Positions 1 through 22,344 of a DNA stretch of 24,000 bases are shown in pieces. The position numbers were made by a program, and so were the translations under genes. The stretch covers positions 53,749 through 77,748 of the forward strand of contig CBFIBQ010000004.1 of assembly GCA_965660875.1 (NCBI GenBank), written 5' to 3'. Within the stretch, counting starts at the first letter, position 1; each line of letters opens with the position of its first letter. Below the pieces are notes generated by a model. The model saw only the letters and a program-made list of their open reading frames with translations. It searched no databases and was not told the origin of the DNA. This DNA is from Salibacteraceae bacterium (GTDB lineage: Bacteria > Bacteroidota > Bacteroidia > Flavobacteriales_G > Salibacteraceae).

Positions 1-2850
1 GCTCTGCTGCCAGCCAGGAAAGCTAACTATACGGACTATGGCGTCAATGTCATTGACAATACGCTCAACAACTGCGGGCGTTTGATCGGTTTTTAGTTCA
101 TAAAACAATTCGGTTAATGCGGTTTGAGGTGACTTTTCTTGAATTTCTAATACCAAGTCTTTTTCGGCTTGAACAGTTTCTTGTGCGATCTTACACAATT
201 CCTTGACAAATTCAATGGAGGTAATTAACCCTTGCTCTGCTTTATTTCTCAAGTCTTCGAGGCGCTCACTGAGTTTCTTGAATTTTGGATTTCCCTCATG
301 CTTTTTGAAGCGCTTTACAAGAGTCTTTTCCAGTTCTTTTGCCTTTTTCGGATCTGGATTATTGAAGATGTCTTCAATAACATCAGCATCCAATACGAAC
401 TCTTGTAAATCATGAACCTCACCTACATGCGTGTTTTCATGCATTATTTTTAAGGTCATTGGGCCATGTGTATACCAGAGCAGTTTTCCAATGGTATCGG
501 AAGCTGGCCTAACGGATTCAAAAACTTGTGAAAGCCATTTGTAATCCTGATTGTAAAGATCCAATGAATTGTCTGGAGATAAGGATTCCCACAAACGAGA
601 CAAGTATTTATAGTCCTTAGCGAAGGCATCTTTCTTTTCGTCGCTGTTAATGGCGTTTTGAGCTAGTTCTAAGCCCTCAAAACCTTCAACTGTTCTATCT
701 ATTTCTTTGAAATGGCTCAACGCTCCCGCAACGGCTTTTGGCAATTTATCTCTCAACTCTGAAAGATTGGAAATGACTTGTTTTACGCTTTCTTCATCGA
801 ATTGCAAAGCCTTCGCTGCGTCATCAAACACTCCGAAGTAATCTACAATCCTACCATAGGATTTACCTGGATACAATCTATTGGTTCTGCAAATGGCTTG
901 CAACAAAGTATGATCTTTTAACGACTTATCTAAGTACATAGTTTGAAGAACAGGTGCATCAAAACCCGTTAACAATTTGGCTGTGACGATAATAAACTTG
1001 AGGTTGGAATTAGCGTCACAAAATGATTCTACAATCTTTTCTTGCTGACTTTTGTCTATACCCCATTTCTGCTTGAACTCCAAGTCGTCGTTTGCCGATG
1101 TGGATATAACCACTGCACTTTCTTCCGTTGGAAAGTAATTATCTAACTCCTCCTTGTAAAGCACGCATGCAAGCCTGTCTGGAGTTACTATCATAGCTTT
1201 GAAACCGTGTGGTTGAACTTTTTCTTTAAAATGATCAGCGATGTCTTCCACAATTTTTGAAACACGCTCTGGAGATTTTAGAAAAGCCGCCATTTTAGCG
1301 GATTTCTGATTGAGTGCATCGGCATCTTCATCAGACAAGGCAGCACTTTCCTTAAAATCGGCCATTGCCTTGTCTATCTTTTCTTTATCCAAATGAATAT
1401 CGACCAACCTCGGCTCAAAGTGCAAAGGCAACGTTGCATCGTCTCGAATGGAATCGTGAAAGGTATATCGAGATAGGTAGCCTCCTTCATCGTCTACTGA
1501 GCCAAATGCCCAAAAGGTATTCTTATCTGCTTTGTTTACTGGAGTTCCTGTAAGTCCAAATAAAAATGCATTGGGTAATGCCGCCCGCATTTGACGCCCC
1601 AAATCACCCTCTTGGGTTCTATGAGCTTCATCTACCAATACAATGATATTATCCCGCGTATTCATATTAGGCTTAGCATCTCTAAACTTATGAATCATAG
1701 AAATGATAATCTTACGCGTATCACGCTGTAGCAAGGTTTGTAGCTCTTGAATACTATCCGTGCTTTCTACATTGGAAACATCCGCAGCATCAAAAATTCC
1801 ACTGATTTGGGTATCTAAATCGGTTCGGTCCACCAACACAACTACTGTTGGACTTTTTAAGGTTGCAGTGCGTCTCAATTTTTGAGCAGCAAACACCATT
1901 AAAAAGGATTTACCCGAACCCTGAAAGTGCCAAATCAATCCTTTTTTAACTTTACCTGCTATTACTCTTTCTACAATTTTATTGGCTCCTTCGTATTGCT
2001 GAAAACGAGGAATAATCTTGATTCTTCGTTTCTTTTTGTCGGTAGAAAACAAGGAAAAATTTAGCAGAATATCTAACAATCTTGCTGGGCTCAATAAATC
2101 GGACAGCTCTTTCCCGATTTCGGTTAATCCTAATTGTTTGGCAATTTTATCATCGTCATTCTCCATTCTCCAAGGCGCCCAGTATTCCAACGGACTTCGA
2201 ATTGAACCGTAATACAGCTCTTTGCCTTCAGTAGCGAAGGAAAGAATGTTGGGTACGAATAATTGAGGAACACTGTTTTCGTAAATATCGTGCACCTCGT
2301 GTGCTCCGTCTAACCAACTAACCGAAGGGCGTATGGGAGTTTTTGCTTCACCAATCACCACAGGAATGCCATTTATTAGCAAAACAACATCGGGAATTTT
2401 AGTTTCTCTGTGGTGAATTCGGTATTGATTGGTAACCACGTATGAATTGTTGGCTAGGTTATCAAAATCGATGAGCCGGACCGGAACATGACGGTTGTTT
2501 TCTCCAAAAGGCATGGTATGTTCACCTGTCATCCATTTAAAAAACTCTTCGTTGGCTTTTACCAACCCCACTTGGTTTACAGCTATTAAGATTGTCCGAA
2601 GCTTATAAATAACTTCATCGGCAAGATTATGATTCGCTTCAATTTCAGGATTTAAACGAATTAGAGCTTCCTTTAATTCTTGTTCTACAAGCACCTCATT
2701 AACACCTCGTTGGATTTCATTGGATGATTTATACACCCAGTCGATACCATAAGTGGGATTAGGCTCTTGAACTCGATTGTTATTTAAGTTGGAGCCACTA
2801 AGCTGATGAATAATAAAATGTTCTACGCTATTGAGTTCGTTAAATGTCAT
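1..2850 (-). CDS. hsdR: Type I restriction enzyme R subunit (HsdR); C-terminal end runs off the left window edge
   Basis: Absent from the ORF track because no stop lies in the window. Hand translation from the ATG at 2850 gives MTFNELNSVEHFIIHQLSG... It shows helicase motif I HFQGSGKS (~1905-1930), a DEAH box NIIVLVDEAHRTQEG (D codon 1630-1632, in frame with 2850) and DAPVLQTMYLDKSLKDHTLL (~900-960). The frame is still open at base 1. The ATG overlaps the upstream gene's stop (ATGA, 2847-2850). Confidence 0.95.
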   Translation of the reverse strand, partial: MTFNELNSVEHFIIHQLSGSNLNNNRVQEPNPTYGIDWVYKSSNEIQRGVNEVLVEQELKEALIRLNPEIEANHNLADEVIYKLRTILIAVNQVGLVKANEEFFKWMTGEHTMPFGENNRHVPVRLIDFDNLANNSYVVTNQYRIHHRETKIPDVVLLINGIPVVIGEAKTPIRPSVSWLDGAHEVHDIYENSVPQLFVPNILSFATEGKELYYGSIRSPLEYWAPWRMENDDDKIAKQLGLTEIGKELSDLLSPARLLDILLNFSLFSTDKKKRRIKIIPRFQQYEGANKIVERVIAGKVKKGLIWHFQGSGKSFLMVFAAQKLRRTATLKSPTVVVLVDRTDLDTQISGIFDAADVSNVESTDSIQELQTLLQRDTRKIIISMIHKFRDAKPNMNTRDNIIVLVDEAHRTQEGDLGRQMRAALPNAFLFGLTGTPVNKADKNTFWAFGSVDDEGGYLSRYTFHDSIRDDATLPLHFEPRLVDIHLDKEKIDKAMADFKESAALSDEDADALNQKSAKMAAFLKSPERVSKIVEDIADHFKEKVQPHGFKAMIVTPDRLACVLYKEELDNYFPTEESAVVISTSANDDLEFKQKWGIDKSQQEKIVESFCDANSNLKFIIVTAKLLTGFDAPVLQTMYLDKSLKDHTLLQAICRTNRLYPGKSYGRIVDYFGVFDDAAKALQFDEESVKQVISNLSELRDKLPKAVAGALSHFKEIDRTVEGFEGLELAQNAINSDEKKDAFAKDYKYLSRLWESLSPDNSLDLYNQDYKWLSQVFESVRPASDTIGKLLWYTHGPMTLKIMHENTHVGEVHDLQEFVLDADVIEDIFNNPDPKKAKELEKTLVKRFKKHEGNPKFKKLSERLEDLRNKAEQGLITSIEFVKELCKIAQETVQAEKDLVLEIQEKSPQTALTELFYELKTDQTPAVVERIVNDIDAIVRIVSFPGWQQS

Positions 2851-3542
2851 TTCTTTTGGCTATTAATGATTCGATCAATTTTCTCTTGTACAATGGGCAT
2901 TCGCTCATCTACCATCAATGGGTGAATGTGCGACAGCAGCACTTCGTCCATCATTCCTTCATTTTTTACGTTGACTAACATTTCGATTAAAAAGGCTTTT
3001 ATGGAATCTTCTGCATTAAGAATTTCGTCCACTATAGTTGTTCTGTTGTCGAGCACATAAATTACGTCTTCAATGTCGTGGCTTGTTCTCCAATCGTTTC
3101 CTCTGTCCTTAAATGCCTCTAGCTTGGTGGCTAAGTAACAAGGAGCGGAGAATATTTGAATGTTTTGGCCTTCGACTTCAACATTGTGTATATCGTTGAA
3201 CCCAATGGAATACCATTTATTCGCGGGACCCATTGGCCCATCCTGGGCGGACATAAAATCAACTGGAATGTCTTTGTATTTATAACTGCAAATGGAGTGT
3301 CCAAAAGGATCGGGATGAAATCCAAGCTCAGCAAGCTTTTTTTGGGTTTTGCTCCATTCCACTATTCCAACAGCATGAAAAGTAAGGTCAATATCGGCAG
3401 TTGGTCGAATTTCATCTGCTGCCGGATCATCGGTATATAAACTAACTACGGCACCACCAACAAACACGACTTGATCGAGAATGTCGTGTAAAGCCGCTGC
3501 AACTTCTGCCACTACTGTTAGATTTATGATTTTATTTTCCAA
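2847..3542 (-). CDS. Nucleotidyltransferase-fold protein, AbiEii-like putative toxin
   Basis: 231 aa. VFVGGAVVSLY...IRPTADIDL matches the minimal NTase hGG...R-x-T-x-DID signature typical of AbiEii/AbiGii-type proteins. It overlaps the upstream wHTH gene by 11 nt and hsdR by 4 nt. Confidence 0.6.
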   Translation of the reverse strand: MENKIINLTVVAEVAAALHDILDQVVFVGGAVVSLYTDDPAADEIRPTADIDLTFHAVGIVEWSKTQKKLAELGFHPDPFGHSICSYKYKDIPVDFMSAQDGPMGPANKWYSIGFNDIHNVEVEGQNIQIFSAPCYLATKLEAFKDRGNDWRTSHDIEDVIYVLDNRTTIVDEILNAEDSIKAFLIEMLVNVKNEGMMDEVLLSHIHPLMVDERMPIVQEKIDRIINSQKK

Positions 3543-7484: not shown

Positions 7485-8947
7485 TAGCCCAAGGTTTTAA
7501 ATAACTGATTCATGCTTGATTTTAAGTCACTTGAAGACTCTTCCCAATTGTTGAACACCTCCCCAAAAGGAACCTTATTCTTATCTTTTATCCTTGAAGA
7601 CTTCACATAGTTAGTAACCAATAATGAGGCGTTATTTTTAATAACGTCATCTATATCAACAAGCTTGGCGAAATCCTTAATGTCCTTATAATCTTCGTAG
7701 GCTTTGAATATCTTATCAATGTGATGGTCTAGCAAATACGAAATAGTTTTCTCATCCTTTACTTCCTCATATGCATTAATAAAAAGAATTTTCCCTTTCT
7801 TTTTTTGCTCCTTATTGGTTCTTCTAATAAGCAAGGCTGACTCCATCGAAGAATTGTAGAACAGGTTTTTACCCAAAGCAATTACACAATCTACAGTATC
7901 AGTTTCAACCATTTTCTTGCGCATTTTCTTTTCATTGTCTCTGAAAAGAATACCATGAGGCCAAAGCTGTACACATCGGCCATTGTTACGATCCATACTT
8001 TTATCAATATGCTGTTCAAAAGCATAATCTGCACATCCTTGTGGAGGTACACCCCAAAGGTTTCGTCCATATGGGTCGTTGGTAAATCCTTTTTGGTCCC
8101 ACGCTTTTATGGAGTAAGGAGGGTTGGCCAAAATCACGTTAAACTTTTTGAGTTCGTCGTTTTCCAAAAATGCAGGATTTGCAAGCGTATCGCCTCTTAC
8201 AATGCTAAACTCCTCTATTCCGTGCATAAACATGTTCATGCGGGCAATGGCAGAAGTAATCAGGTTAATTTCTTGTCCGTACAACTTAAGTGTTCGATAT
8301 TCCTTGCCTTCTTCTTTGAGGTGCAAGGCGCAATTGAGCAACAAGCCACCGGAACCACAAGTAGGATCGTAAACCGATTCACCCGGCTGTGGGTCCATAA
8401 TCATGGTCATGAGTTTAACCACCGTTCGGTTGGTATAAAACTCCGCAGCGGTATGGCCGCTGTCGTCGGCAAATTCTTTTATGAGGTACTCGTAAGCATT
8501 TCCCAGTTTGTCATCAGGAATGTTGCTTAAACTGAGTTTGTGCTGCGAGTAATGCTCTATGAGGTTGGTTAAGGTTTCGTCGCTCAATCGGTTTTTGTTG
8601 GTCCAAGAAGAATCACCAAAGATGCCGTATAAGGTGTCGGGATTAGCCTTTTCAATTTCGCGCATGGCATCTTGCAAGGCAATACCAACATTAACAGTGG
8701 TTTCTCTTACATCATTCCAATGAGCTCCTTTGGGCACCAAAAAATGGTGATGTTCCGCAAAGGCGGCGTATTCCATATCGCCATCACTCTCTTCCAACGC
8801 TTTTTCAAATTCTTCATCATACACATCACAAATGCGTTTGAAGAACATCAATGGAAAGATGTACTGTTTGTAATCTCCTGCATCTATGGTTCCACGCAAT
8901 TGGGTAGCAGCACCCCAGAGGTATTTTTCGAGTTGTTGTTGGGTCAT
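7484..8947 (-). CDS. hsdM: Type I R-M N6-adenine DNA methyltransferase (HsdM), copy 1
   Basis: 487 aa. N-terminal HsdM domain (LWGAATQLRGTIDAGDYKQYIFPLMFFKRICDVYDEEF), SAM motif DPTCGSGGLL, catalytic ILANPPYS. Confidence 0.95.
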   Translation of the reverse strand: MTQQQLEKYLWGAATQLRGTIDAGDYKQYIFPLMFFKRICDVYDEEFEKALEESDGDMEYAAFAEHHHFLVPKGAHWNDVRETTVNVGIALQDAMREIEKANPDTLYGIFGDSSWTNKNRLSDETLTNLIEHYSQHKLSLSNIPDDKLGNAYEYLIKEFADDSGHTAAEFYTNRTVVKLMTMIMDPQPGESVYDPTCGSGGLLLNCALHLKEEGKEYRTLKLYGQEINLITSAIARMNMFMHGIEEFSIVRGDTLANPAFLENDELKKFNVILANPPYSIKAWDQKGFTNDPYGRNLWGVPPQGCADYAFEQHIDKSMDRNNGRCVQLWPHGILFRDNEKKMRKKMVETDTVDCVIALGKNLFYNSSMESALLIRRTNKEQKKKGKILFINAYEEVKDEKTISYLLDHHIDKIFKAYEDYKDIKDFAKLVDIDDVIKNNASLLVTNYVKSSRIKDKNKVPFGEVFNNWEESSSDLKSSMNQLFKTLG

Positions 8948-9351
8948 GATAACTCTTTAATTTTTTCTTGAACCTGTTCCTTAATTTCCATGGCCAAGTC
9001 ATTGTGCCAATTTCTAAATACAAACCTGAATCTATCGGGAAACTCAGATTCAATTTTCTTTCCTGTGTATTTACATAAAGCTATTCTATTCTTTGGTGCT
9101 TTGTTTTCCGGTCTGATTATTTGAATTAACACTACTTTAAGTTCTGGGTTTTCTTCTAGGTATGGCCAAATTTTAATAACATTTGTGTTGGGGTGTTTTT
9201 GTCCTTTTTCTACTTCAAGTAATACAAGTAAGTTCTCCTGTTTACTGAAGAAGTCAACATTACCCCATCTTCCTAATTGTAATTCGTTCGATTCGAAATT
9301 AACTCCTAGTCTATCGGCAATAAATAAGTTTTCTTCTGTTACTCTAGCCAT
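8944..9351 (-). CDS. Small hypothetical protein with a PD-(D/E)xK-like motif, translationally coupled to hsdM
   Basis: 135 aa. NVDFFSKQENLLVLLEVEKGQKH fits D-x13-E-x-K. Its stop overlaps the hsdM ATG (ATGA, 8944-8947). Confidence 0.5.
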   Translation of the reverse strand: MARVTEENLFIADRLGVNFESNELQLGRWGNVDFFSKQENLLVLLEVEKGQKHPNTNVIKIWPYLEENPELKVVLIQIIRPENKAPKNRIALCKYTGKKIESEFPDRFRFVFRNWHNDLAMEIKEQVQEKIKELS

Positions 9352-9400: not shown

Positions 9401-10005
9401 CGTTTTACAGCTTTTAAAATTTCGTCGAATGCAGTTTTATTTAAATTATAGCCGTCATCTTTTTTCTCATATAAAACATGTACTTCTATGTTCGGATAGT
9501 CTCCCGCTTTTTTGATGTTTTCTTTCAATAAATCCTGATTAATATTCCAACCGTAAACGATTACCATTTGGTACTTTAGGTCAGCAGAAACAATAATATC
9601 TTGCTGCCAATTCGGCCATTTAATCCAAGCTTTTTTTCCCTTTATTTTTTCAATAAAATTATTTTTATCTCTAAGGTATTCGGCAAAATTCCTATTCCAA
9701 CCCATGTTCGTCTTCAAATCAAAATAATGCGTTAAAACATTATCATCAATAATTGATAAGTCTGGTTTAAAAGATTTGGCTTTTTCATTCTGGTTGAATC
9801 GAATTGACGTTACTTTATCGACATAATAATCTAGGTCTATAGATTTAATGTTTTTAGCTATAAACAAGGCAAATAGATCTTCTACATATCCAGAAATGCC
9901 ATGTGCCATACCTCTCTGTATTTTGTAACCCCCATCTCCTTCAATTAGACGATCAGCTGTAGAACGGTGTGTTTCAAGCTTTCTGAAAAACTCTTCTTTA
10001 GTCAT
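9397..10005 (-). CDS. Small PD-(D/E)xK (restriction-endonuclease-like) protein
   Basis: 202 aa. KPDLSIIDDNVLTHYFDLKTN fits PD-x13-D-x-K, with an upstream acidic residue in YVEDLFALF. It overlaps the upstream gene by 8 nt. Confidence 0.5.
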   Translation of the reverse strand: MTKEEFFRKLETHRSTADRLIEGDGGYKIQRGMAHGISGYVEDLFALFIAKNIKSIDLDYYVDKVTSIRFNQNEKAKSFKPDLSIIDDNVLTHYFDLKTNMGWNRNFAEYLRDKNNFIEKIKGKKAWIKWPNWQQDIIVSADLKYQMVIVYGWNINQDLLKENIKKAGDYPNIEVHVLYEKKDDGYNLNKTAFDEILKAVKR

Positions 10006-11173
10006 CCGTTGTTTTTAAGTATGAATTGTTGCTAGACATTAGACCTATCTGCTGTAACAATTGATCATTTACCGGACGCAAATCTTCATCTAAAAATGTC
10101 ATTAGTTCTTTTGCAAAATTTTGTCCCAATTTGTCAACGTTTGTAAAGTCAATTGTTCCCTTCATTAAGTATAACCATTCCTTTCCAGGCTTACTGTCAA
10201 GCACGTGGAGGTCCAAATGAGAACACCGCTTTTTAAGATCCTCTGCACTACCTCCTTCTTTCCACTTTTTTAGAGATTCACCGTACAACCAGTATTGGTA
10301 ATCGCATTTTTTTTCAGAAAAAACACGCTCAAATTCGACCACTATTGAAATATGTGGGTCGGCATATTTAAGACTCAAACTATATGGGTTTTTCCTATAG
10401 TAGGTATAACCTGGAACGGCATTCAATAACTCCGAAGCTTCAGCAGCTAATTCTGATTCCGCTTTCTTTTTTAATTGGGTAAGTTCATTAATTGTCTTTC
10501 CGTGTTTGAAGCAAAAATCGAGGCTTTCTGTGTGCTTTTCTGAACTCATTCGTTTTAGATTATTGATAAAGTCAAATAAATATGGAAGGTGATCAATCTG
10601 ATTGTCTATTAGATTTTTACCAAGTTCTTTTTTTATTTCATCAATTAACTCTTGGTAGGTAATATTTACAAATTGTCGGTTCTTCACAACCATTGGTTTA
10701 GCGGATAACACAACCCCTACTTTACTGGCAGCTTTGGTTGATTTATAATAATCGGTGAGGTTATTATACAACTCAGCAAATACTTTGTGTTCAACTACCA
10801 ATGCATTATCGTAGGTTTCTTTTTCCAGTTCATCAGAGGTAAGCTGATCGTATAGCAACAAGTCAATAAATCCTTTTTTGTCAGTTTGTTTTTCTTGGAT
10901 AACGTGAATTTCTCCAGTCAACCAACTAAGGTCTACATCAATGCCCTTTTCTTTCGCTTTTAGTGTAATTAGCGAGAATAAAGCATCGCCAAAAATGACT
11001 GACAAGCCATGCGTATTATCCGATTCAAGAAAATAGGCGAACCAATTACTCAATACGGTTTCTCGATGCGGATGTCCAGAAATAGAGAACAAATCATCTC
11101 GTAAAGAATTTGCCTGGGGTAGCTGTTCATTTTCAAGAAGTAACACCTCTTGTTCCAATTGTTCTAGGCTCAT
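9998..11173 (-). CDS. PD-(D/E)xK nuclease superfamily protein (PDDEXK_4-like)
   Basis: 391 aa. HPHRETVLSNWFAYFLESDNTHGLSVIFGDALF is the N-terminal signature I associate with this family. KGFIDLLLYD...ALVVEHKV gives a D...E-x-K core. Its ATG overlaps the hsdM2 stop (ATGA, 11170-11173). Confidence 0.65.
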   Translation of the reverse strand: MSLEQLEQEVLLLENEQLPQANSLRDDLFSISGHPHRETVLSNWFAYFLESDNTHGLSVIFGDALFSLITLKAKEKGIDVDLSWLTGEIHVIQEKQTDKKGFIDLLLYDQLTSDELEKETYDNALVVEHKVFAELYNNLTDYYKSTKAASKVGVVLSAKPMVVKNRQFVNITYQELIDEIKKELGKNLIDNQIDHLPYLFDFINNLKRMSSEKHTESLDFCFKHGKTINELTQLKKKAESELAAEASELLNAVPGYTYYRKNPYSLSLKYADPHISIVVEFERVFSEKKCDYQYWLYGESLKKWKEGGSAEDLKKRCSHLDLHVLDSKPGKEWLYLMKGTIDFTNVDKLGQNFAKELMTFLDEDLRPVNDQLLQQIGLMSSNNSYLKTTDD

Positions 11174-12648
11174 TTAACGAATTTAGATAAGATGGTTTTA
11201 AACTTTTCTTCTGCCTTCAAACTTTCATTCCAAGTCGTTTTTAAATCAGCTAACGCTTCTTCAACAGAAGGCAGATTGTCTTCGATGATCTTCTCAACAT
11301 ACAATGGAATATTCAAATTGTAATCGTTTTCTATCAGGTCTTCCTTAGAAGCTACTTTTACGTAATTCTCCACATCTTCATAAGCCTGCGTCCATTCAAA
11401 TATTTGATTCACATGTTCTGGTTCCAAGTAATTTTGTGCTCTACCTACTCTTACTTGGTCAGAAGCATCAATGAATAGCACTTTACCTTTTTTCGCGGCT
11501 TCCTTTTTCTTTTTGAAAACCATAACACAAGCGGCCAGCTGTGTTCCGTAAAAAATATTGGCTCCTAATCCTATAACTGCTTCAAGCATATCTTGCTCTA
11601 ATAATGCTTGTCGAATTTTTCCTTCAGCTCCTTTCCGAAACAGCGCGCCGTGTGGTAAGACCACGGTCATTCGCCCATCGTCATTCATGGACTTAATCAT
11701 GTGCTGCACCCAAGCCATGTCACCGTTTCCTTTTGGTGGTACTCCTGCAATGTTTCTTCCGTAGGGATCATTGGCCCAATTTTCTGCACCCCATTCTTTA
11801 AGCGAAAATGGAGGATTGGCAATGACACAATCAAAAGTTTTTAATCCGTCAGCTTCAAAAAATGCAGGGTTTCTAAGGGTATCACCTCTATATATTTGAA
11901 AGTCTTCAATGCCATGTAAAAACATGTTCATTCTGGCTATTGAACTAGAAGTCAGGTTCTTCTCTTGTCCATAGAGTTTGAGCGTTCTGTAGTCTTCGTT
12001 GTTCTCTTTGAGATGATTTACAGATTCAAGCAACATTCCGCCCGTTCCACATGCAGGATCGTAAATGGATTCACCCTCATGCGGATCAAGTATCAACCCA
12101 AGCAAATGAACAACAGACCGTGGTGTATAGAATTCGCCTGCTTTTTTATTGGTAAGATCAGCAAAGTGTTTGATCAAATATTCGTACGAGTTTCCAAGTA
12201 AGTCTGAATCTACATTGCTATTACATAAATCGTACTGCGAGAAATGCTCAATTAGATCAATCAGCAGTCGATCGGAGAGTTTGTTTTTATTACTCCATTG
12301 AGCGTCGCCAAATATGCCGTACAAAAACTCTTGATTGGCCTGTTCAATTCCTCTTAACGCTTTTTCAATGGCTAATCCTACATTGGTTGTTGTCTCACGC
12401 ACATCTTTCCAATGGCAGCCTTCTGGTATTTCGAATCGATGAAACTCGGGTAGGTTCGCATAATCTTCGTCCCCATCAGATTCCTCCAATGCATTTCGGT
12501 ATTCTTCATCGTACACATCCGATATCCTTTTGAAAAACAATAAAGGAAAAATGTACACTTTGAAGTCAGAAGCATCTACAGGGCCTTTAAGAATCCAGGC
12601 TGCTTTTGATAAATATTGTTCTAGCTGGGAGAGGGTAATTTTTTCCAT
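11170..12648 (-). CDS. hsdM: HsdM-like N6-adenine DNA methyltransferase, copy 2 (no adjacent hsdS)
   Basis: The track ORF runs to 12837, but HsdM homology starts at MEKITLSQLEQYLSKAAW (ATG at 12648, 1 nt after the upstream gene's stop at 12650-12652). Motifs: FYTPRSVV, DPACGTGGML, VIANPPFS. By-eye alignment suggests roughly half or more of residues are identical to copy 1. Confidence 0.9.
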   Translation of the reverse strand: MEKITLSQLEQYLSKAAWILKGPVDASDFKVYIFPLLFFKRISDVYDEEYRNALEESDGDEDYANLPEFHRFEIPEGCHWKDVRETTTNVGLAIEKALRGIEQANQEFLYGIFGDAQWSNKNKLSDRLLIDLIEHFSQYDLCNSNVDSDLLGNSYEYLIKHFADLTNKKAGEFYTPRSVVHLLGLILDPHEGESIYDPACGTGGMLLESVNHLKENNEDYRTLKLYGQEKNLTSSSIARMNMFLHGIEDFQIYRGDTLRNPAFFEADGLKTFDCVIANPPFSLKEWGAENWANDPYGRNIAGVPPKGNGDMAWVQHMIKSMNDDGRMTVVLPHGALFRKGAEGKIRQALLEQDMLEAVIGLGANIFYGTQLAACVMVFKKKKEAAKKGKVLFIDASDQVRVGRAQNYLEPEHVNQIFEWTQAYEDVENYVKVASKEDLIENDYNLNIPLYVEKIIEDNLPSVEEALADLKTTWNESLKAEEKFKTILSKFVK

Positions 12649-12649
12649 A

Positions 12650-13645
12650 CTATTTTGGGCTAAAAATGGCGCCCGTAATTGTTCTTTTAGAAAGTTGTTT
12701 TCCTTGATTCGATTGCCAAATGCGATTCCGAAAGTAGAAAATTTCCAGCTTCCTTTTTTTGGAGTCCAAAGCATTCGAAACAACACAAATTCTAAAGTGC
12801 TTTCTATTAGCCACTTTTTGACTATTGGCATATTCATTTGGAGTCAATTCAATAGATAAAAATGGACCACTTAATCCTTTTGCTTCTAACAATAATGTTT
12901 GCTTTCCATTTTTTGCCTCCATATCCCAACCAACATTTTCCTTGTGGACATAGTCTATTCTATAACCTCGATTCGTGTAATATTCTTCGACTAAATCCAT
13001 GGCAGCATATTCTACCTTTTTTCTAACTTCTGGATCAGGCTGTCTCGGTCGTCCAATTTTTCCTTTTTTCGGATTTCGTTCTATCCAAAACTTTGGATCT
13101 TTAAAAAAGTTATCCAAGTCGGTCAAAAACTTCTTTCGTTTCGGATAATTGTCTACATACCAGGCATTTGCTTGGCCCGGGCCTTTTTTCATTCTGTCGG
13201 GCATTTCAAAAACCCTGTCTTCAAGTGGAATCAATGTTCCATTTTTTACAAGGCATTCTATATTGTAGAGGGTGTGATCCTTCCTAGCTCCTTTTCTTAA
13301 TGATTGGAGGGACCTGTATAACGTTGCATTTTCATATTTCCCAACAACATATTGTCCACCTGTACTCGGTTCAGTAGCAAAAAGCACCACTGTGACATCT
13401 TTTATTCTGTCGTCGACAACTGTGGCCCCTAATCTCTCAATCCGAATATTATGTCCTTGTTGCATTCGAGAATACGCAAGGTATTTTCCATTATGAGGCA
13501 AGAAATTATAGACCTCTCCGCCATCACTATGCTCATTAACATAACTTCCAGCACCAACAGGATAGTCATCTTTTGTAATGCCCTTATAATTTCTCATCGA
13601 GGCAACTCGTAAAAAAATGATTGGATAAGTTTTCTTTTTACTCAT
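12650..13645 (-). CDS. Two-domain protein: unrecognised N-terminal domain plus C-terminal DUF3883-like PD-(D/E)xK domain
   Basis: 331 aa. The C-terminal part reads VEYAAMDLVEEYYTNRGYRIDYVHKENVGWDMEAKNGKQTLLLEAKGLSGPFLSIELTPNEYANSQKVANRKHFRICVV. This fits the DUF3883 pattern G-(Y/W)-D...E-x-K...LT-x-NE...hhhV. Its ATG overlaps the upstream stop (ATGA, 13642-13645). Confidence 0.6.
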   Translation of the reverse strand: MSKKKTYPIIFLRVASMRNYKGITKDDYPVGAGSYVNEHSDGGEVYNFLPHNGKYLAYSRMQQGHNIRIERLGATVVDDRIKDVTVVLFATEPSTGGQYVVGKYENATLYRSLQSLRKGARKDHTLYNIECLVKNGTLIPLEDRVFEMPDRMKKGPGQANAWYVDNYPKRKKFLTDLDNFFKDPKFWIERNPKKGKIGRPRQPDPEVRKKVEYAAMDLVEEYYTNRGYRIDYVHKENVGWDMEAKNGKQTLLLEAKGLSGPFLSIELTPNEYANSQKVANRKHFRICVVSNALDSKKRKLEIFYFRNRIWQSNQGKQLSKRTITGAIFSPK

Positions 13646-14340
13646 AACATGGTCCTTATTATATCAATTTCTAGGCTCTGGGAATCCTTCGAATTACCGG
13701 CTCTACGCCAAAGATTTGGCCCCCGAAAACTAGGATGAATTAAAAATCCAAATGGAATTAAGTCGCCCTTTAAATCCACTTCAATACTACTTTTTTCTAT
13801 TGTGTTGAATTGACTTGTTTTAGAAAAGCCCTTCCAAGCACTTGTTAACTCTGGAAAAACTGGGCGAACAAACTTTACTACTTCCAAACCCAACAATAAG
13901 ACACCGCGTGGCTGAAGCACTTTAATTTGCTCAATCATAAATTGTTGACAATGCTGGACAAATGCTTTGTCTTTGCGAGCTTCCAATGGGCCGGTGATTT
14001 TTTCAGAAACTCTAACCCCAGGAAAGCAGTTCGAATAAAAACAGGTTTCTGGCTTCACGCCAGCTTCAATTAACAATTTATTGAGGTTGACCCAAGTTGG
14101 GTTTTTGTCCTCTTCGTGTCCTATTTCTTTGATTTTTTCTAGGTATGATTCATGCCCAAAATCTTGCCCTAAAATAAGTATGGGTTTTTTTGGAAATGGT
14201 TTTTCTGGGTCAGAAACACCCGAACAAATTGGAAAGAACCCGAATCCAGGATACATTAATTTGTTTAATTTTTGAGTTTCGGGGAAGGGAAAATCTTGGT
14301 AATACTTAGCATAAAGCCTGAATAGTTTGTTACTTAACAT
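13642..14340 (-). CDS. Uracil-DNA-glycosylase-superfamily (UDG-fold) protein
   Basis: 232 aa. ILILGQDFGH resembles motif A (GQDPYH / GEAPG types). CFYSNCFPGVRV resembles the hyhTN-x-hkCrP segment. HCQQFMIEQIKVLQPRGVLLLGLEV fits C-x2-hh...P+hhhhLG. FLIHPSFRG resembles motif B (HPS). Confidence 0.7.
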   Translation of the reverse strand: MLSNKLFRLYAKYYQDFPFPETQKLNKLMYPGFGFFPICSGVSDPEKPFPKKPILILGQDFGHESYLEKIKEIGHEEDKNPTWVNLNKLLIEAGVKPETCFYSNCFPGVRVSEKITGPLEARKDKAFVQHCQQFMIEQIKVLQPRGVLLLGLEVVKFVRPVFPELTSAWKGFSKTSQFNTIEKSSIEVDLKGDLIPFGFLIHPSFRGPNLWRRAGNSKDSQSLEIDIIRTML

Positions 14341-14395: not shown

Positions 14396-15526
14396 TCATT
14401 CTTTATCGTAATGATTTAGTAAATATTCTTCTATTTCAACTTCGTTCAATTTTTGGGAAGATGCCTGTCCTCTAATAAAAAATTCCATATCTATTTCACC
14501 ATACCTTCTATTTTCCAAGTAGATTGGTGTATTTGCTTCTTCTACCACAGCCATGAAAACATGCGTACCTTCAGAAACTTCGAGTGTGACTGTGTTTATT
14601 ACTCCGAGCACCCATTTGGGTAAAAACTGGGTGACCATCGAATCAAACTCCAATTTAAAATTGTCCAATTTACCACCACAGCATAGTTTGATATCAAACT
14701 CCTCAATACCATGTACTTGCTTGTCATCAGATAGCCCTATGATCAATACTCCGCCTTTAGTATTCAAAAATGAGGCGAGCGTCTTGGCGCAATGGTATTT
14801 GGCAGTAATCCCAGGTTTACCAGTCTTGGGGTTGAAAACTAAAAATGGTTTAAACTCCAGTTGACGTCCTTCGCCATTTTCGGTCAATTCGTTAAAGTAA
14901 GCGCGGTTATCTGCAAGCTCTACTTTTCGCTTCCATGCGTTTTCCTTTTCTATTTGAGCATCTTCCTTATTATAATTCTCAGAATCCCATTTATAGTTAA
15001 CTTTTAAAATTTGGTTGACAGAATCTACATAACCCGACGAGACATAATCCTCCCCATAATACTCAATTGTCATCTCACTATGGCTAGTATCAATGTTCAA
15101 ATCTTGGTAGATGTGGTACTCTCTAATTACAAAGTCAAACATGTCATCGGGGTTTACACTTTGCGATAAAATTCCTACATTTCCAATGCCATATACCACA
15201 TTTTCCTTTTCCGCGTGAAAGAGTTCTTCCTTTGCATTATTTATTGTAGCCAACGCTTCATCACTCAATACGAGAGTTATTGAAATGAATGGCCCCAACT
15301 TAACATCAATGAATTCATATTCATTAGTCTCCTCGTTCAATTTTACTCGATTATTATCTTTAAGTCCCTCGATACAGTTATAAAAAAACTCAAAAGCATT
15401 TTCTCTATTTACAAATGGATCTTCTACTTCAAAAGATCTTGAAAATGATTGAATTTCAACATCATCTTTCGAATGAAAAATGGGCAAGTGGAAGTGCACT
15501 CTATAAGTAATTGGAGCTTCAAGCAT
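14396..15526 (-). CDS. Schlafen/AlbA_2-domain protein with an unrecognised ~210-aa N-terminal region
   Basis: 376 aa. The C-terminal half reads ENGEGRQLEFKPFLVFNP...AKTLASFLNTKGGVLIIGLSDDKQVHGI...VFMAVVEEANTPIYL...FFIRGQASSQKLNEVEIEEYL, which fits the AlbA_2 (divergent AAA/Schlafen) pattern. Confidence 0.7.
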   Translation of the reverse strand: MLEAPITYRVHFHLPIFHSKDDVEIQSFSRSFEVEDPFVNRENAFEFFYNCIEGLKDNNRVKLNEETNEYEFIDVKLGPFISITLVLSDEALATINNAKEELFHAEKENVVYGIGNVGILSQSVNPDDMFDFVIREYHIYQDLNIDTSHSEMTIEYYGEDYVSSGYVDSVNQILKVNYKWDSENYNKEDAQIEKENAWKRKVELADNRAYFNELTENGEGRQLEFKPFLVFNPKTGKPGITAKYHCAKTLASFLNTKGGVLIIGLSDDKQVHGIEEFDIKLCCGGKLDNFKLEFDSMVTQFLPKWVLGVINTVTLEVSEGTHVFMAVVEEANTPIYLENRRYGEIDMEFFIRGQASSQKLNEVEIEEYLLNHYDKE

Positions 15527-15571
15527 GGTTCAAATTTAAATTATGTTGCGAACAAAAAGAATAGCAATCGA

Positions 15572-16027
15572 TCATGACTCTAAATTGGATAATAAATACT
15601 GCTTAACCGGTTCCCAATTCCGAAAACTCCCACCACCAAACTGTATCCATTCCCCTTCAAAGTATTCCGCACCGTTATTTGGGCGGTCATCAATAAGATA
15701 ATCGCCCTTATTGAGGTTTTTGTGGTGGGAGAGTATCAATCGTTTCCAGGCTTTATTGCCTAGGTACTTTTTTACCCAAATTACCTTATCCGACCAAGCA
15801 CTTGGGTTTTCCCATGGCGCGGTTGAAAGAATGTAGGTATCGTATTGGGTGGCTAGCTTTTCAAAGGCTTCAATGGCGCCCTTCATGGGTTTCATTAGGC
15901 CAAAAATACCCGGTACTTCGTCCAGGCGGCCTTCGTATTCTTTTTTGGTTTTTTCGTCCAATTGGTCAATTCCCGATTGGAAATCAACCAAGACATTGTC
16001 CATGTCTATGTACAGTGTTTTCTTCAT
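15572..16027 (-). CDS. 5'(3')-deoxyribonucleotidase (HAD superfamily, NT5C-like)
   Basis: 151 aa. LYIDMDNVLVDF is the DxDxV HAD motif I, followed by ILSTAP and YLIDDRPNNG. Confidence 0.8.
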   Translation of the reverse strand: MKKTLYIDMDNVLVDFQSGIDQLDEKTKKEYEGRLDEVPGIFGLMKPMKGAIEAFEKLATQYDTYILSTAPWENPSAWSDKVIWVKKYLGNKAWKRLILSHHKNLNKGDYLIDDRPNNGAEYFEGEWIQFGGGSFRNWEPVKQYLLSNLES

Positions 16028-16050
16028 TGTTTTTATTATTTAGGTTTTCG

Positions 16051-16596
16051 TTACCCCTGTTTCAATTTATTATTGACTTTTTCGGCTATCACTTTCTTGT
16101 ATTGCTCGTAGTCGAATTCATAAGACCAATAGTCTAGTCCGTCTACTGGGTCGGGTATGTAGTTTTTATCGTCGTCATTATCGTCATCATCGGGTGCATA
16201 CTTGACAACAACGGTGCTGTTATCGAGGGCCTCATCGATATACAAATCCACCGGTTCGTCCTCGTGTTCCTTAATGTTTGAACTTATGGCAACAATGTTT
16301 CCCCTATCCTCAAAACGGGCAATCGCTTGGTTGTACTCTTCGCATACTTTACCTTCTAAAGTAACGGTACCGAAGTAGTACTCCTCCTCCATTTCATGTG
16401 CCCGTTCCAGTTTTTTCATGGTTAAAGCAGAAGTAGTGATGGATGTTGGGTGAAAATGCTTGTCGTGTTTAGCGTAGAATTTCCGCAAACACCGCTCGAT
16501 GAAAGTGCTCATGGTTTCTTCATTCGTTTGGGGAAGGTAGCTTCCGTTTTTGTCGTAATCCTCCGAGGTAAAATAGTAGTGTTCTTCTAAAATCAT
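16051..16596 (-). CDS. Highly acidic hypothetical protein (first gene of the minus-strand array)
   Basis: 181 aa, rich in D/E, with YAPDDDDNDDDKNYIPDPVDGLDYWSYEFDYEQY. No domain recognised. Confidence 0.6.
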   Translation of the reverse strand: MILEEHYYFTSEDYDKNGSYLPQTNEETMSTFIERCLRKFYAKHDKHFHPTSITTSALTMKKLERAHEMEEEYYFGTVTLEGKVCEEYNQAIARFEDRGNIVAISSNIKEHEDEPVDLYIDEALDNSTVVVKYAPDDDDNDDDKNYIPDPVDGLDYWSYEFDYEQYKKVIAEKVNNKLKQG

Positions 16597-16639
16597 AGTC
16601 TTTAGTTTTTGTTTCTATTCGAAAATTAGGTATTCATTC

Positions 16640-16654
16640 CGCCATAGTTTGGCA
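16640..16654. promoter_or_regulatory. CGCCA-N5-TGGC(A) palindromic box, copy A
   Basis: ccgccatagtttggcag lies 44 nt upstream of the acidic-protein ATG (16596). Confidence 0.35.
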
Positions 16655-16671
16655 GGGTAAAGTGCGTAATG

Positions 16672-16722
16672 CTGTCGTTCTCGATACACCCTTCGTTTTG
16701 CTCAGGGCACTCGAACTGACAG
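16672..16722. other. Long imperfect hairpin in the divergent intergenic region
   Basis: ctgtcgttc (16672-16680) pairs with gaactgacag (16713-16722): 9 bp with one bulged A. An inner GCCCU/AGGGU-type pairing is possible. No flanking U-run. Confidence 0.3.
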
Positions 16723-16772
16723 ACAACTTCTTTCATATAGAAATTATAAAATGACCCCGATGAAATGGACCC

Positions 16773-16860
16773 TTTTTTGGCAAAACCTAAAATGGGCCTA
16801 CACTACTATATTGTTTATTGACAGACCGTTTTCCGCGGAGGGGTTTTTTGGCAAAACCTA
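16773..16860. repeat. Two perfect 17-bp direct repeats TTTTTTGGCAAAACCTA
   Basis: Copies at 16773-16789 and 16844-16860, 71 bp start to start, in the intergenic region between the divergent operons. Confidence 0.9.
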
Positions 16861-16872
16861 GGAGCTTTCAAT

Positions 16873-16887
16873 CGCCATTAGTTGGCG
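16873..16887. promoter_or_regulatory. CGCCA-N5-TGGCG palindromic box, copy B
   Basis: cgccattagttggcg lies 44 nt upstream of the WYL regulator ATG (16931). Confidence 0.4.
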
Positions 16888-16930
16888 GAAGAATTTTTCC
16901 TGGTTATCTTGCAGGTTTAAAATCAAACCT

Positions 16931-17797
16931 ATGGCTTCACACTTTGGAATATTACGGTCTTACTTTAAATTGGTAAATCGGGCACAAGTTGGGGATTACC
17001 CCAGCAAAAAAAATTTACTCGACTTGTTTGAAGAAAGTCCAATTTCTGCTCGGACCTTGGAGCGCTATTTATTCGAATTGAACGAGGAGTTTGGCATCAA
17101 CATCAAATACAATCGATCCAGAAAAGGATACGAACTGGTAGCGGAAGATGATATTGGGGTAGAGCAATTCTTTAAATTCATGGAGTTTAGTGGCAAGGCC
17201 AACCTCATGCAAGACATTCTGAATACCGGAAAAGAAGGGCTGAAATATCTGGACTTTGAAGAAAAAGGGTTGTTGAAAGGCGTTCACTTTCTATCGCCTT
17301 TATTTCATGCCACCCGAAAACAGCAGGTATGTGCGTTGAGCTATTATAAGTTCGATTCGGAGGAAGTGCACGAGCACGTCTTATATCCCTATTTATTGAA
17401 AGAATATCAAGGGCGTTGGTACATAATCGGCTATTGCGAAGACCAAAAAGATACCCGCACCTTTGCGGTGGACCGTATACGCGAATTGGTCGTTCGAAAA
17501 GATAAATTCCGTAAAAAACCCCTCTTCAAAAAGCTCGAAAACCTCGACCATTGCATCGGGCTAAACTGGTCGAATGAAAAGATCGAACGTATTGTCATCC
17601 GGTTTACGGAATACCAAGCCAAATACCAACGCGCCTTACCCTGGCATTGGAGCCAAAAGGAATTGGAAACAGAACCAACCACGCCTAAGGGCTTTGTTGA
17701 TTTTGAGTTTCGATTGATTATCAATTATGAACTCAAGCAAAAGATCTGGATGTTGGGGAAAGAGGTGGAGGTGTTGGAGCCGGAGGGGTTGAAGTAA
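16931..17797 (+). CDS. HTH-WYL-WCX transcriptional regulator (BrxR/CapW-like)
   Basis: 288 aa. N-terminal HTH (SARTLERYLFELNEEFGINIKYNRSRKGYEL), WYL domain (YPYLLKEYQGRWYIIGYCEDQKDTRTFAVDRIREL) and a C-terminal VEVLEPEGLK. Confidence 0.85.
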   Translation: MASHFGILRSYFKLVNRAQVGDYPSKKNLLDLFEESPISARTLERYLFELNEEFGINIKYNRSRKGYELVAEDDIGVEQFFKFMEFSGKANLMQDILNTGKEGLKYLDFEEKGLLKGVHFLSPLFHATRKQQVCALSYYKFDSEEVHEHVLYPYLLKEYQGRWYIIGYCEDQKDTRTFAVDRIRELVVRKDKFRKKPLFKKLENLDHCIGLNWSNEKIERIVIRFTEYQAKYQRALPWHWSQKELETEPTTPKGFVDFEFRLIINYELKQKIWMLGKEVEVLEPEGLK

Positions 17798-17856: not shown

Positions 17857-19326
17857 ATGCTATCAAAATCTACATACGTAAGAGGCCACCAATGTTTAAA
17901 AAGCCTTTGGCTGCATAAAAAGAAACCGGAGTTAAAAGACGATATTTCAGCGCAACAAGAAGCCTTGTTTGCTCAAGGAACTTCGGTCGGTGAATTGTCG
18001 CAACAACTTTTTCCGGGCGGAAAAGATGCTACTCCTGAAGATTATTACCATTGGAAACCTTCCTTCGAAAAAACGAAGCAATGGATTGAAGAAGGTCAGG
18101 AGGTCATCTATGAGGCGGCATTTAATTATGGAAATGTAATGGCGGCCCTCGATATCTTGGTGAAACGCGATGGAGAATGGCATGCCATTGAGGTAAAAAG
18201 CTCTACGTCTGTAAAGGACTATCACCGAATAGATGGCAGCCTGCAATATTGGGTAATGAGTTTAGCTGGCATTAAACCCGATAAGTTCTTTTTGATGCAC
18301 ATCAAAAACCAATATGTGCGGGAAGGTGAGCTAGACATCGAACAGCTTTTTACTTTAGAAGATATTACGGCTGATGTGCTGGCCAGACAACACGAGGTTC
18401 AACCTTATTTAACCGATTGTTTTGATGTACTTAAACAAAAAGCAGAACCGCAAGTGCCTATAGGCGATCAATGTTCCGATCCATTTCCTTGTGATTTTAT
18501 TAGTCACTGCTGGAAACATGTGCCCGACTATTCCGTGTTTAATATTACTCGAATAGGAGGAAAGAGCTGGGATTTATACCACAAAGGTATTTACGAGATA
18601 AATAAAGTACCTGATGATTATCCTTTGAGCGAAAAACAACGCCATCAGGTTGAAGGGGTTAAAACGGGTAAAGAAGTATTTCTAAAAGATGAAATCGAGA
18701 CTTTTCTGAATGAATGGGAATTCCCGCTTTATTTTTTTGACTTTGAAACCATAGGTCCTGCCGTTCCGCTATACGATGACACTCGACCTTATTCCCAATA
18801 TCCTTTTCAATACTCACTTCACGTATTGCAAGCGTCTGGGGAGGTAGAACACTTCGAGTACTTGGGTGATGGAAAAACAGACCCTCGACCTGGTTTGATC
18901 AATCAAATGCTACGTGACCTCGGGACCAAAGGAAGTATTGTAACCTACAATATGGGGTTTGAAAAAGGAAAAATAACGGCTATGGCTGAAAACTTTCCTG
19001 AATATAAGGACTCACTGTTGGACATTAATGAGCGAGTCGTTGACCTCATTATTCCGTTTCGCAAACATTGGTTGTACACTCCGAAAATGAAGGGTTCGGC
19101 TTCCATAAAGTACGTTTTACCTGCCTTGGTACCTAATCTGTCATACAACGATTTGGAAATCAAAGAAGGCGGAACAGCCAGCGCAACTTTCCAGGCAATG
19201 TGCGAAGGAACTTTTACCGGAGATATTGAAGAAACACGCAGGCAACTACTGGACTACTGTAAGTTGGATACTTGGGCGATGGTTGAGATTTATTGGTATG
19301 TGAAAAACAGACTCAAAGCCAACTAA
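17857..19326 (+). CDS. DUF2779-type protein: N-terminal Cas4/RecB-like PD-(D/E)xK nuclease with Cys cluster plus C-terminal DEDD (RNase H-fold) exonuclease
   Basis: 489 aa. LDILVKRDGEWHAIEVKSS gives D...E-x-K, followed by LQYW. Cys residues: HQCLKS plus CSDPFPCDFISHC (four Cys). The C-terminal half has YFFDFETIG (Exo I), TYNMGFEKG (Exo II-like) and LLDYCKLDTWAM (Exo III-like). Confidence 0.8.
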   Translation: MLSKSTYVRGHQCLKSLWLHKKKPELKDDISAQQEALFAQGTSVGELSQQLFPGGKDATPEDYYHWKPSFEKTKQWIEEGQEVIYEAAFNYGNVMAALDILVKRDGEWHAIEVKSSTSVKDYHRIDGSLQYWVMSLAGIKPDKFFLMHIKNQYVREGELDIEQLFTLEDITADVLARQHEVQPYLTDCFDVLKQKAEPQVPIGDQCSDPFPCDFISHCWKHVPDYSVFNITRIGGKSWDLYHKGIYEINKVPDDYPLSEKQRHQVEGVKTGKEVFLKDEIETFLNEWEFPLYFFDFETIGPAVPLYDDTRPYSQYPFQYSLHVLQASGEVEHFEYLGDGKTDPRPGLINQMLRDLGTKGSIVTYNMGFEKGKITAMAENFPEYKDSLLDINERVVDLIIPFRKHWLYTPKMKGSASIKYVLPALVPNLSYNDLEIKEGGTASATFQAMCEGTFTGDIEETRRQLLDYCKLDTWAMVEIYWYVKNRLKAN

Positions 19327-22265: not shown

Positions 22266-22344
22266 CTTAATCCGTTATAATTTTACTGATCGGTGCTGAA
22301 ATAGCATCTTCTTTCAGAATCATTTTTATTATCTAATACCCATT

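Follow-up and report, generated by a model that had tools for sequence, protein, structure and literature searches.

A GQDF-type uracil-DNA glycosylase-fold protein in a defence island of a Salibacteraceae bacterium: family, fold and genomic context

What does a protein with the fold of a uracil-DNA glycosylase (UDG) do in a genomic island of restriction genes: repair, restriction in concert with its neighbours, or defence by itself? The question is raised by a 24,000-nucleotide (nt) stretch of contig CBFIBQ010000004.1 from a Salibacteraceae bacterium, hereafter the window, whose minus strand encodes such a protein at 13642-14340. A first-pass annotation, made from the letters of the window, had proposed that this gene opens an operon and is hard-wired to nucleases and a methylase. 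The reading that we favour, at a rough probability of 0.45, is that the product would be a stand-alone, monofunctional, Brig-like DNA glycosylase acting on uracil-type or modified pyrimidines.

The gene was defined as follows.

13642..14340, minus strand: UDG-superfamily protein of the 'GQDF' family, 232 amino acids (aa), based on the open reading frame (ORF), Pfam, HMMER, AlphaFold2 and Foldseek

Both the ORF and the motifs quoted in the first-pass annotation were present. Specifically, the protein contains ILILGQDFGH (motif A, or motif 1, at residues 58-63), CFYSNCFPGVR, QPRGVLLLG and IHPSFRGPN. Asp60 thus lies in the GQDF of motif 1, Asn104 of motif 3 in a CFYSN string followed by Gly108 and Arg110, and His202 at the start of the His-Pro-Ser of motif 2. 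Searches with the single sequence returned little: the Pfam UDG model (PF03167) scored marginally (25.3 bits vs a cutoff of 24.3), no match was found in NCBIfam or among PDB sequences, and a word-indexed search of 5.8e9 proteins yielded one relative, of 34% identity. The closest relative is 34-36% identical. A full HMMER scan of 1.84e9 cluster representatives identified 1060 relatives at E ≤ 1e-3, 727 at E ≤ 1e-10 and 150 at E ≤ 1e-30, so that the family comprises 1060 clusters at 50% identity. Almost every member has a length of 230-260 aa, and the alignment spans the whole length, including the N-terminal region. Because the scan yielded this many relatives, mostly aligned over their full length, the gene is real and belongs to a sizeable family that has no curated name.

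The family has a clear consensus, YP…I.G.AFFPGG.GL - IMvLGQDF - TW.NL - CFFTNA.MGLR, continuing with C..F…Q…P..I..LG - HPS.R..N…R. Twelve residues are near-invariant (F35, F36, P37, G41, G58, W83, C100, F101, N104, G108, G151 and H202), and the protein of the window has all of them. Among 117-192 members, conservation was 97% for G58, 86% for D60 (otherwise Asn), and 99% for both N104 and H202. The protein departs from the consensus locally, with FFPICSG for FFPGG.G and SNCFPG for TNA.MG. The only conserved Cys residues are C100 and C131; C39 and C105 are extra in this protein. Variants of motif 1 occur in the order of frequency GQDF > GHDF > GHNF/GNDF, and they covary with the residue at position 110: the combination was Asp/Arg in 135 members, Asn/non-Arg in 19 and mixed in 4 (Fisher 2e-20, uncorrected for phylogeny). 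Members of the GHNF type carry MGL[I/K/M/S/T], so the change from Asp to Asn goes with loss of the MGLR Arg. The covariation suggests an Asp60-Arg110 pair, or salt bridge, in the active site, and the alignment likewise suggests that the Asn-type members form a distinct subclade.

The first-pass annotation had also described a ~55-aa N-terminal extension. A region of this kind does precede motif A, and its FFP..G segment is conserved across the family, with F35, F36, P37 and G41 invariant. On reading the sequences, most of it probably corresponds to the segment that precedes motif A in family 4 UDGs ('VFGEG'), minus the CxxC Fe-S ligands, and would thus be no added domain.

The fold was evaluated using AlphaFold2. 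A model based on a 50-sequence alignment had a pLDDT of 92.6 and a pTM of 0.91; an earlier run on a 2-sequence alignment (pLDDT 53.6) was discarded. The model contains four parallel strands, at residues 54-60, 100-106, 146-150 and 193-200. Foldseek matched it with a probability of 1.00 to 47 PDB UDG chains at E ≤ 1e-3. The top match was the S. tokodaii family 4 UDG, 4zbx (E 1.6e-7, TMq 0.56, 17% identity), followed by UdgX and the family 4 enzymes of T. thermophilus and T. maritima; for the best matches, 4zbx and UdgX, E was ~1e-7 and TM 0.5-0.57. SMUG1, TDG/MUG and a family-1-like enzyme ranked far lower. Identity to the family 4 and UdgX structures was 17-19%. Similarly, the T. maritima family 4 UDG 1l9g came first when the family profile was compared with PDB sequences (E 3.5e-5), with CFFTN aligned on the family 4 Asn strand and C131 on one Fe-S ligand. 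As modelled, the protein has a UDG-superfamily fold that is nearest to family 4 and UdgX. The motifs, Foldseek and the PDB profile thus agree with the first-pass annotation that this is a divergent UDG fold, with a family-1-like Gln-Asp in a family-4-like scaffold.

The family was compared with the known UDG families. It shares with family 4 UDGa (4ZBX, 1L9G, 1UI0) and UdgX the strand order, the placement of the motif 3 Asn on β2, the HP(S/A) of motif 2, a Cys matching one Fe-S ligand and an N-terminal segment before motif 1. However, motif 1 is GE(A/G)PG in family 4 and GQDF (or GHDF, GHNF, GNDF) here, and FFPGG.G, TW.NL and MGLR are found in the GQDF family only. Family 4 enzymes use four Cys residues to bind a 4Fe-4S cluster, whereas three of these are absent from the GQDF consensus: the 'KC' ligand position is occupied by Gly108, there is no N-terminal CxxC, and only C131 has a counterpart. 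With one of the four ligands retained, the cluster has been lost. Membership of family 4 was ruled out by motif 1 and the Fe-S Cys residues. The clade appears to derive from a family-4-like ancestor that lost its 4Fe-4S cluster and gained the family-1-like Gln-Asp of motif 1.

Family 1 UNG (GQDPYH/HPSPLS) agrees with the GQDF family in the placement of Gln-Asp within motif 1 and in the HPS of motif 2, but the Pro-Tyr-His after the Asp and the sequence of the Leu-intercalation loop are missing from the GQDF family. The Foldseek match to the family-1-like BdiUNG (5gn2) was weak (E 8e-4, TM 0.41), and no family 1 chain was among the matches of the PDB sequence or profile searches. With G-Q-D and H-P-S alone in common and weak structural similarity, family 1 was ruled out; family 5 was also rejected in the overall placement. 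DR0022-like UDGs have the motif 1 LEAP, with Leu first (PMC9796141). This group was ruled out as well, motif 1 here beginning with Gly (G58, 97%).

UDG-fold anti-phage glycosylases are, as the first-pass annotation stated, a recently recognised and real class: Brig1 (PMC11078745), Brig2 (10.1101/2025.10.29.685425) and Brig3 (PMC13160076). All three are single-gene UDG-fold defence glycosylases, and Brig1 and Brig3 excise cytosine derivatives (α-glucosyl-5-hydroxymethylcytosine and 5-hydroxymethylcytosine). The top structural match of Brig1 is likewise the S. tokodaii family 4 UDG (PMC11078745). The supplement of that paper provided the Brig1 sequence, which was searched with the hidden Markov model (HMM) of the GQDF family (hmmsearch --max); no match was obtained at E ≤ 100. 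Brig1 is characterised by LGLNPG and NFELYPWHS with key residues Y121 and E147, in contrast to the Asp/Asn/His of the GQDF family. Membership of Brig1 was ruled out on both grounds, and since Brig3 is reported to align with Brig1 (PMC13160076), we take it to lie outside the family too, set apart by description. The likenesses to Brig1 and Brig3 are a single-domain UDG fold, a similar size and a location in defence islands, together with ties to BREX and ADP-ribosyl glycohydrolases: one GQDF member, at locus L006, follows a BREX system, and another, P0126, is fused to a PARG domain. The targets of Brig1 and Brig3 are cytosine-derived, whereas the GQDF triad predicts uracil-type bases. Brig2, which comes from an integron and acts on phages with hypermodified thymidine, resembles the family in its UDG fold, its solo gene, its patchy occurrence near mobile or defence loci, and a pyrimidine (thymine-derived) target, known or predicted. 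Its homologues are reported mostly from Pseudomonadota and Bacillota, whereas GQDF members come mostly from Bacteroidota in a pattern-biased scan; this comparison is by description only. The GQDF family is thus a separate UDG lineage of ~1000 clusters, set apart from Brig2 by description only, so that the two may coincide.

Fusions were found in several members. P0126 (L107 150-2231) is a single 693-aa ORF that joins a GQDF-type UDG to a microbial-type PARG domain (PF10021, E 1.7e-28); together with the ADP-ribosyl glycohydrolase neighbours reported for Brig1 homologues, it may point to a link between base excision and ADP-ribose removal. Other members carry various uncharacterised N-terminal domains. 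In P0015, the C-terminal domain has a D…EVK motif with sub-threshold matches to UPF0102 and DUF4143 of the PD-(D/E)XK type (E ~0.2).

In family 1 UDGs, the motif 1 Asp activates water and the Tyr excludes 5-substituted bases. In the GQDF family, this Tyr is replaced by Phe, Trp or Gln in a different position; judging from the motif, substituents at C5 are possibly tolerated. Family 4 and related enzymes recognise uracil through bidentate hydrogen bonds between its N3/O4 and the Asn of motif 3, and the O2 of the departing base is stabilised by the His of motif 2 (PMC5387724, PMC9796141). Because the motif 1 Asp, motif 3 Asn and motif 2 His are conserved, the protein is predicted to be a hydrolytic, monofunctional glycosylase of the uracil type.

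What we infer of its catalysis, substrate class and role in defence is as follows. The target base would be flipped into the pocket, where Asn104 would read the N3/O4 face of a uracil-type pyrimidine. His202 would stabilise O2 of the leaving base, and Asp60, paired with Arg110, would position the attacking water, leaving an abasic site. In this way, uracil, or 5-substituted or hypermodified uracil or thymine, would be excised from phage DNA, and the abasic sites would block replication or be cut by host apurinic/apyrimidinic (AP) endonucleases. The UDG would be one independent cassette among many in the island, and the adjoining NOV_C nuclease, HsdM2 and PDDEXK_4 proteins would be separate modules and not required partners. 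The predicted substrate class would span bases of ordinary repair, such as uracil and 5-hydroxymethyluracil (hmU), as well as those of phage DNA (uracil-DNA phages, hmU and hypermodified thymidines).

Genomic contexts were evaluated in 24 other loci, consisting of 15 contigs from a one-genome-per-species set and 9 loci from an index of assemblies. The locus search used a 25-sequence subset that was biased to 'CFFTNAIM' members, mostly of Bacteroidota. Including the window, at least 7 of 25 distinct loci had recognised defence genes within ~8 kb, the others being housekeeping contexts, in a small sample and with no formal background. Type I restriction-modification (R-M) genes lay within 8 kb in 4 of the 25, compared to a rough random expectation of <1%, the sample again being small. 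The defence-associated loci were as follows.

L020: UDG after HsdM-HsdS, an AAA_15/21 ATPase and a caspase-like gene, with GmrSD/SLFN, HNH and NERD nearby
L022/23: UDG two genes past hsdR in a type I R-M operon
L006: UDG directly after BREX PglZ-BrxL, with a WYL homologue present
L003: UDG with CRISPR-Cas and transposases
L021: UDG with TIR/SEFIR-NACHT and a resolvase
L018: UDG with HsdM

Additional UDG-like genes were found at two of these loci. At L022/L023 (1060-4094), a 158-aa gene, a SMODS nucleotidyltransferase, a second UDG and DUF3644 stand between hsdS and hsdR; this second UDG-superfamily protein has 249 aa and a GTMPG motif, and reads as family-6/HDG-like. At L006 (9760-10413, minus strand), a second, unrelated UDG-like ORF of 217 aa with the motif 1 IIGLNP lies ~1 kb downstream of the GQDF UDG. 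It gave a weak match to the family HMM (E 4e-5) and no BLAST similarity to Brig1. Two further loci show other arrangements. At L002 (9157-10750), the homologue and three small ORFs are inserted into a split transketolase and separate the gene for its N-terminal subunit from that for its C-terminal subunit; the transketolase gene downstream overlaps the stop of the homologue. At L005 (5708-6412), in a Saprospira metagenome-assembled genome (MAG), the homologue lies two genes downstream of polA and has an in-frame stop exactly at the codon for the MGLR Arg, after which the frame continues, indicating a pseudogene or an assembly error. Overall, the GQDF UDG is a solo gene in heterogeneous places.

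In the window, the UDG stands in a single co-directional array of 17 genes that runs on the minus strand from 16596 to 1. The order is p181, NT5C-like, SLFN_AlbA_2, UDG, NOV_C, hsdM2 and PDDEXK_4 (PDC-S26), then p202, p135, hsdM1, hsdS, DarT and DarG, and finally a GIY-YIG-like gene, a helix-turn-helix (HTH)-like gene, an AbiEii-like nucleotidyltransferase and hsdR. The features with their coordinates are as follows.

16931..17797, plus strand: WYL/WCX regulator-like gene, divergent from the array
14396..16596, minus strand: three co-directional genes upstream of the UDG, encoding a 181-aa unknown protein, a 151-aa NT5C-like protein and a 376-aa SLFN_AlbA_2 protein
12650..13645, minus strand: NOV_C/DUF3883 protein, 331 aa, with a 4-nt overlap with the UDG stop
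11170..12648, minus strand: hsdM2, type I R-M methyltransferase subunit, 492 aa from an internal start
9998..11173, minus strand: PDDEXK_4 protein, PADLOC candidate PDC-S26, 391 aa
9397-10005, minus strand: p202, 202 aa, without family assignment
8944-9351, minus strand: p135, 135 aa, without family assignment, with a D…EVEK motif by eye
7484-8947, minus strand: hsdM1, type I R-M
6354-7484, minus strand: hsdS, type I R-M
5713-6351, minus strand: DarT, between hsdS and hsdR
4663-5712, minus strand: DarG, macro-domain protein, between hsdS and hsdR
1..2859, minus strand: hsdR, at least 950 aa, extending past the window start and closing the type I R-M locus
17857-19326, plus strand: DUF2779 protein, near the NOV_C gene
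21420-23400, minus strand: RVT_1 protein (351 aa), then directly an Nmad3 protein (281 aa)
23538-23954: DnaB C-terminal fragment, adjoining the RVT_1 and Nmad3 genes

The UDG is the fourth gene of the array, the gaps upstream being 23, 45 and 55 nt; with three co-directional genes ahead of it, it does not open an operon as had been proposed. The first long intergenic gap is at 16597-16930, opposite the divergent WYL regulator. As the first-pass annotation had noted, the UDG stop overlaps the ATG of the DUF3883-like gene: the TGA of the UDG and the ATG of NOV_C/DUF3883 share 4 nt (ATGA). Packing of this kind is found throughout. The gap from NOV_C to hsdM2 is 1 nt and the overlap from hsdM2 to PDDEXK_4 is 4 nt (a 555-aa ORF of hsdM2 would overlap NOV_C). 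Every junction of the array is an overlap or a gap of ≤63 nt, with seven stop/start overlaps. The UDG/NOV_C ATGA is one of these seven, some of which join demonstrably unrelated systems. Because the whole 17-gene array is so packed, tight packing is not specific to the UDG/NOV_C pair. A promoter and terminator scan of the window was at chance level, the method being ill-suited to a Bacteroidota-like organism.

Linkage between the two families was evaluated in both directions. Using tblastn with every window protein, none of the 24 other UDG-family loci had a match to NOV_C, PDDEXK_4, SLFN or NT5C. The only neighbours of the window's type were HsdM at 3 kb (L018), HsdM/HsdS (L020) and one WYL protein (L006). 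An all-against-all comparison of neighbours revealed no recurrent partner of the UDG, the exceptions being a synteny shared by two Mucilaginibacter species and one small unknown protein in two loci. Downstream of the closest relative by profile score (P0003), there was no ORF in the 200 nt that remain to the end of its 1.7-kb contig. Conversely, none of 81 NOV_C-family loci had a match to the UDG HMM. Recurrent neighbours of NOV_C were only HsdS (12 loci), HsdM (10) and HsdR (6), in variable order: HsdM-NOV_C-p86-HsdS-HsdR in L026 and L029, and NOV_C-HsdM-HsdS, as in the window, in L041. Within this sample, NOV_C and UDG are paired in the window only. Contigs of equal length (16592 and 27250 bp) did occur among the UDG and NOV_C homologues, but those of 16592 bp proved to come from different samples and matched by coincidence. 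NOV_C thus travels with type I R-M operons as a passenger in its own right. A glycosylase hard-wired to nucleases and a methylase is not supported, and the apparent wiring is an impression created by the packing of the defence island.

The NOV_C protein itself consists of an N-terminal domain (residues 1-200) and a C-terminal NOV_C/DUF3883 PD-(D/E)XK nuclease domain, in which D241, E254 and K256 are invariant in the family. The family, of ~320 aa, gave 219 matches of 35-54% identity over the full length. The N-terminal domain contains strongly conserved motifs (IFLRIAWM..Y.G, GGEV.NF, GGQYIVGWY and GPGQ.N.WY) and had no match in Pfam, PDB profiles or PADLOC. DUF2779 proteins directly adjoin NOV_C homologues in two unrelated metagenome loci (L041 1749-3104 and L055 6986-8503).

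The whole window is a defence island, with a type I R-M locus as its frame, and the Pfam and PADLOC content confirms the first-pass view that it is no repair neighbourhood. Across more than 20 kb, the neighbours of the UDG are all defence-related. The R-M locus has two hsdM paralogues, whose products are 51% identical, and only one hsdS. PDC-S26, a PADLOC defence candidate found embedded in other defence systems, sits between the two hsdM genes with the two small genes p202 and p135, for which Pfam and PDB profile searches returned nothing usable. The stretch from hsdS to hsdR houses DarT/DarG, the GIY-YIG-like gene and the AbiEii-like nucleotidyltransferase pair. Of the three genes upstream of the UDG, the first encodes an acidic protein, the NT5C-like gene a short deoxypyrimidine 5'-nucleotidase, and the SLFN_AlbA_2 gene a protein with an uncharacterised 200-aa N-terminal half; none of them recurs beside UDG homologues. 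In a Cryomorpha MAG, a WYL protein 36% identical to that of the window is encoded at L006 12925-13830 (minus strand), at a distance of ~4 kb from the GQDF UDG. Elsewhere in the window, HTH and HipA genes were found, and the RVT_1 and Nmad3 genes look like a DRT-type defence pair; NMAD domains are among the unvalidated defence domains predicted by DefensePredictor (PMC13092281). The GC content of the window is uninformative because the entire window is island. Defence genes are known to be embedded in type I R-M, BREX or DISARM loci, a pattern termed 'guilt by embedding' (Payne et al., 10.1101/2024.01.29.577857). The UDG, NOV_C, PDC-S26 and DarTG genes lie within or directly beside a type I R-M operon, as do relatives at L020, L022/23 and L026. 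Such embedding describes where genes occur and not their mechanism.

Several results weigh against a stand-alone role in defence. The full uracil-recognition triad is equally expected of an ordinary UDG. About half of the sampled loci, or more, have ordinary housekeeping surroundings: L002, L004, L024 and L025 belong here, as do most of 114 neighbours from 14 genomes, among them polA, CoA transferase, aminotransferases and AcrB. In two species of Mucilaginibacter, the UDG occupies a syntenic site and is 74% identical, suggesting vertical inheritance. Searches of PLSDB plasmids (tblastn, three queries), GenBank phages (tblastn) and IMG/VR (scan) yielded no member, and so no sign of mobility. 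Finally, the family lies outside PADLOC-DB v2, PADLOC having no model for it. The same triad, the housekeeping contexts, one of them beside polA, and the Mucilaginibacter synteny suit an accessory repair glycosylase for uracil, hmU or other deaminated or oxidised pyrimidines that spread horizontally and merely landed in the island, and the sources that name members call them 'uracil-DNA glycosylase (family 4)'. We consider this account possible but somewhat doubtful. The distribution is sporadic and the sequences are highly divergent, the closest relative being only 34-36% identical; moreover, the defence and type I R-M contexts of at least 7 and of 4 of the 25 loci, the fusions to microbial PARG and to a nuclease-like domain, and the uniformly defence-related surroundings in the window are less readily explained by repair.

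The proposal that the UDG, NOV_C, HsdM2 and PDDEXK_4 form one base-excision restriction(-modification) system, in which abasic DNA is passed to the nucleases, draws on the junctions described above and on the precedent of Brig3-BapA, a UDG-fold glycosylase with an overlapping partner gene (PMC13160076). The C-terminal domain of P0015, with its D…EVK motif, could be added as a 'Rosetta-stone' fusion. We judge this proposal improbable. No NOV_C, PDDEXK_4 or SLFN homologue was found at the 24 other UDG-family loci, and no UDG at the 81 NOV_C-family loci; the recurrent companions of NOV_C are HsdM, HsdS and HsdR alone, at changing positions; the array is packed with overlaps and tiny gaps throughout, the unrelated DarTG and hsdMS included; and downstream of the closest UDG relative, the 200 nt left on its contig hold no ORF. 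The fusion argument is weak, as the PD-(D/E)XK matches of P0015 are sub-threshold and BLASTP detected no similarity between its C-terminal domain and the NOV_C protein of the window. An inert or non-hydrolytic UDG fold would be a sensor of modified bases, a DNA binder like the UDG-like domains of phage family-A polymerases, or a UdgX-like covalent binder of AP sites. Foldseek did give UdgX and the UDG-like N termini of phage PolA enzymes E-values similar to those of true glycosylases, but the Asp, Asn and His of motifs 1, 3 and 2 show 86-99% conservation, and on reading the sequence the KRRIH loop specific to UdgX, which holds the cross-linking His, is missing; an inert protein would therefore be very surprising. 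The favoured reading remains that of a stand-alone, Brig-like glycosylase.

Base-excision immunity, comprising Brig1-3 and the Dag families, is a young field in which each new glycosylase lineage has revealed a new targeted modification of phage DNA. The present analysis delimits an uncharacterised UDG lineage with a clear signature, a high-confidence model and testable catalytic residues. It also provides a caution for the reading of operon function from stop and start codons that overlap in defence islands. Tentatively, and with some doubt, the GQDF family may be a fourth independent lineage of anti-phage base excision, apart from Brig1/3 and possibly from Brig2, specialised for uracil-DNA phages or for hypermodified bases derived from uracil, such as hmU, glucosyl-hmU and aminoalkyl or putrescinyl thymidines. 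Its members would have been recruited repeatedly to type I R-M and BREX loci, where they would cover modified-DNA phages that escape those systems. In a more radical version, the UDG of the window may cooperate with the overlapping NOV_C nuclease, abasic sites being converted to double-strand breaks. The GQDF UDG is a well-defined candidate for screening and not a conceptual surprise. It recurs at loci of type I R-M and BREX systems and is for this reason a concrete choice for screens with modified-thymidine or uracil-DNA phages.

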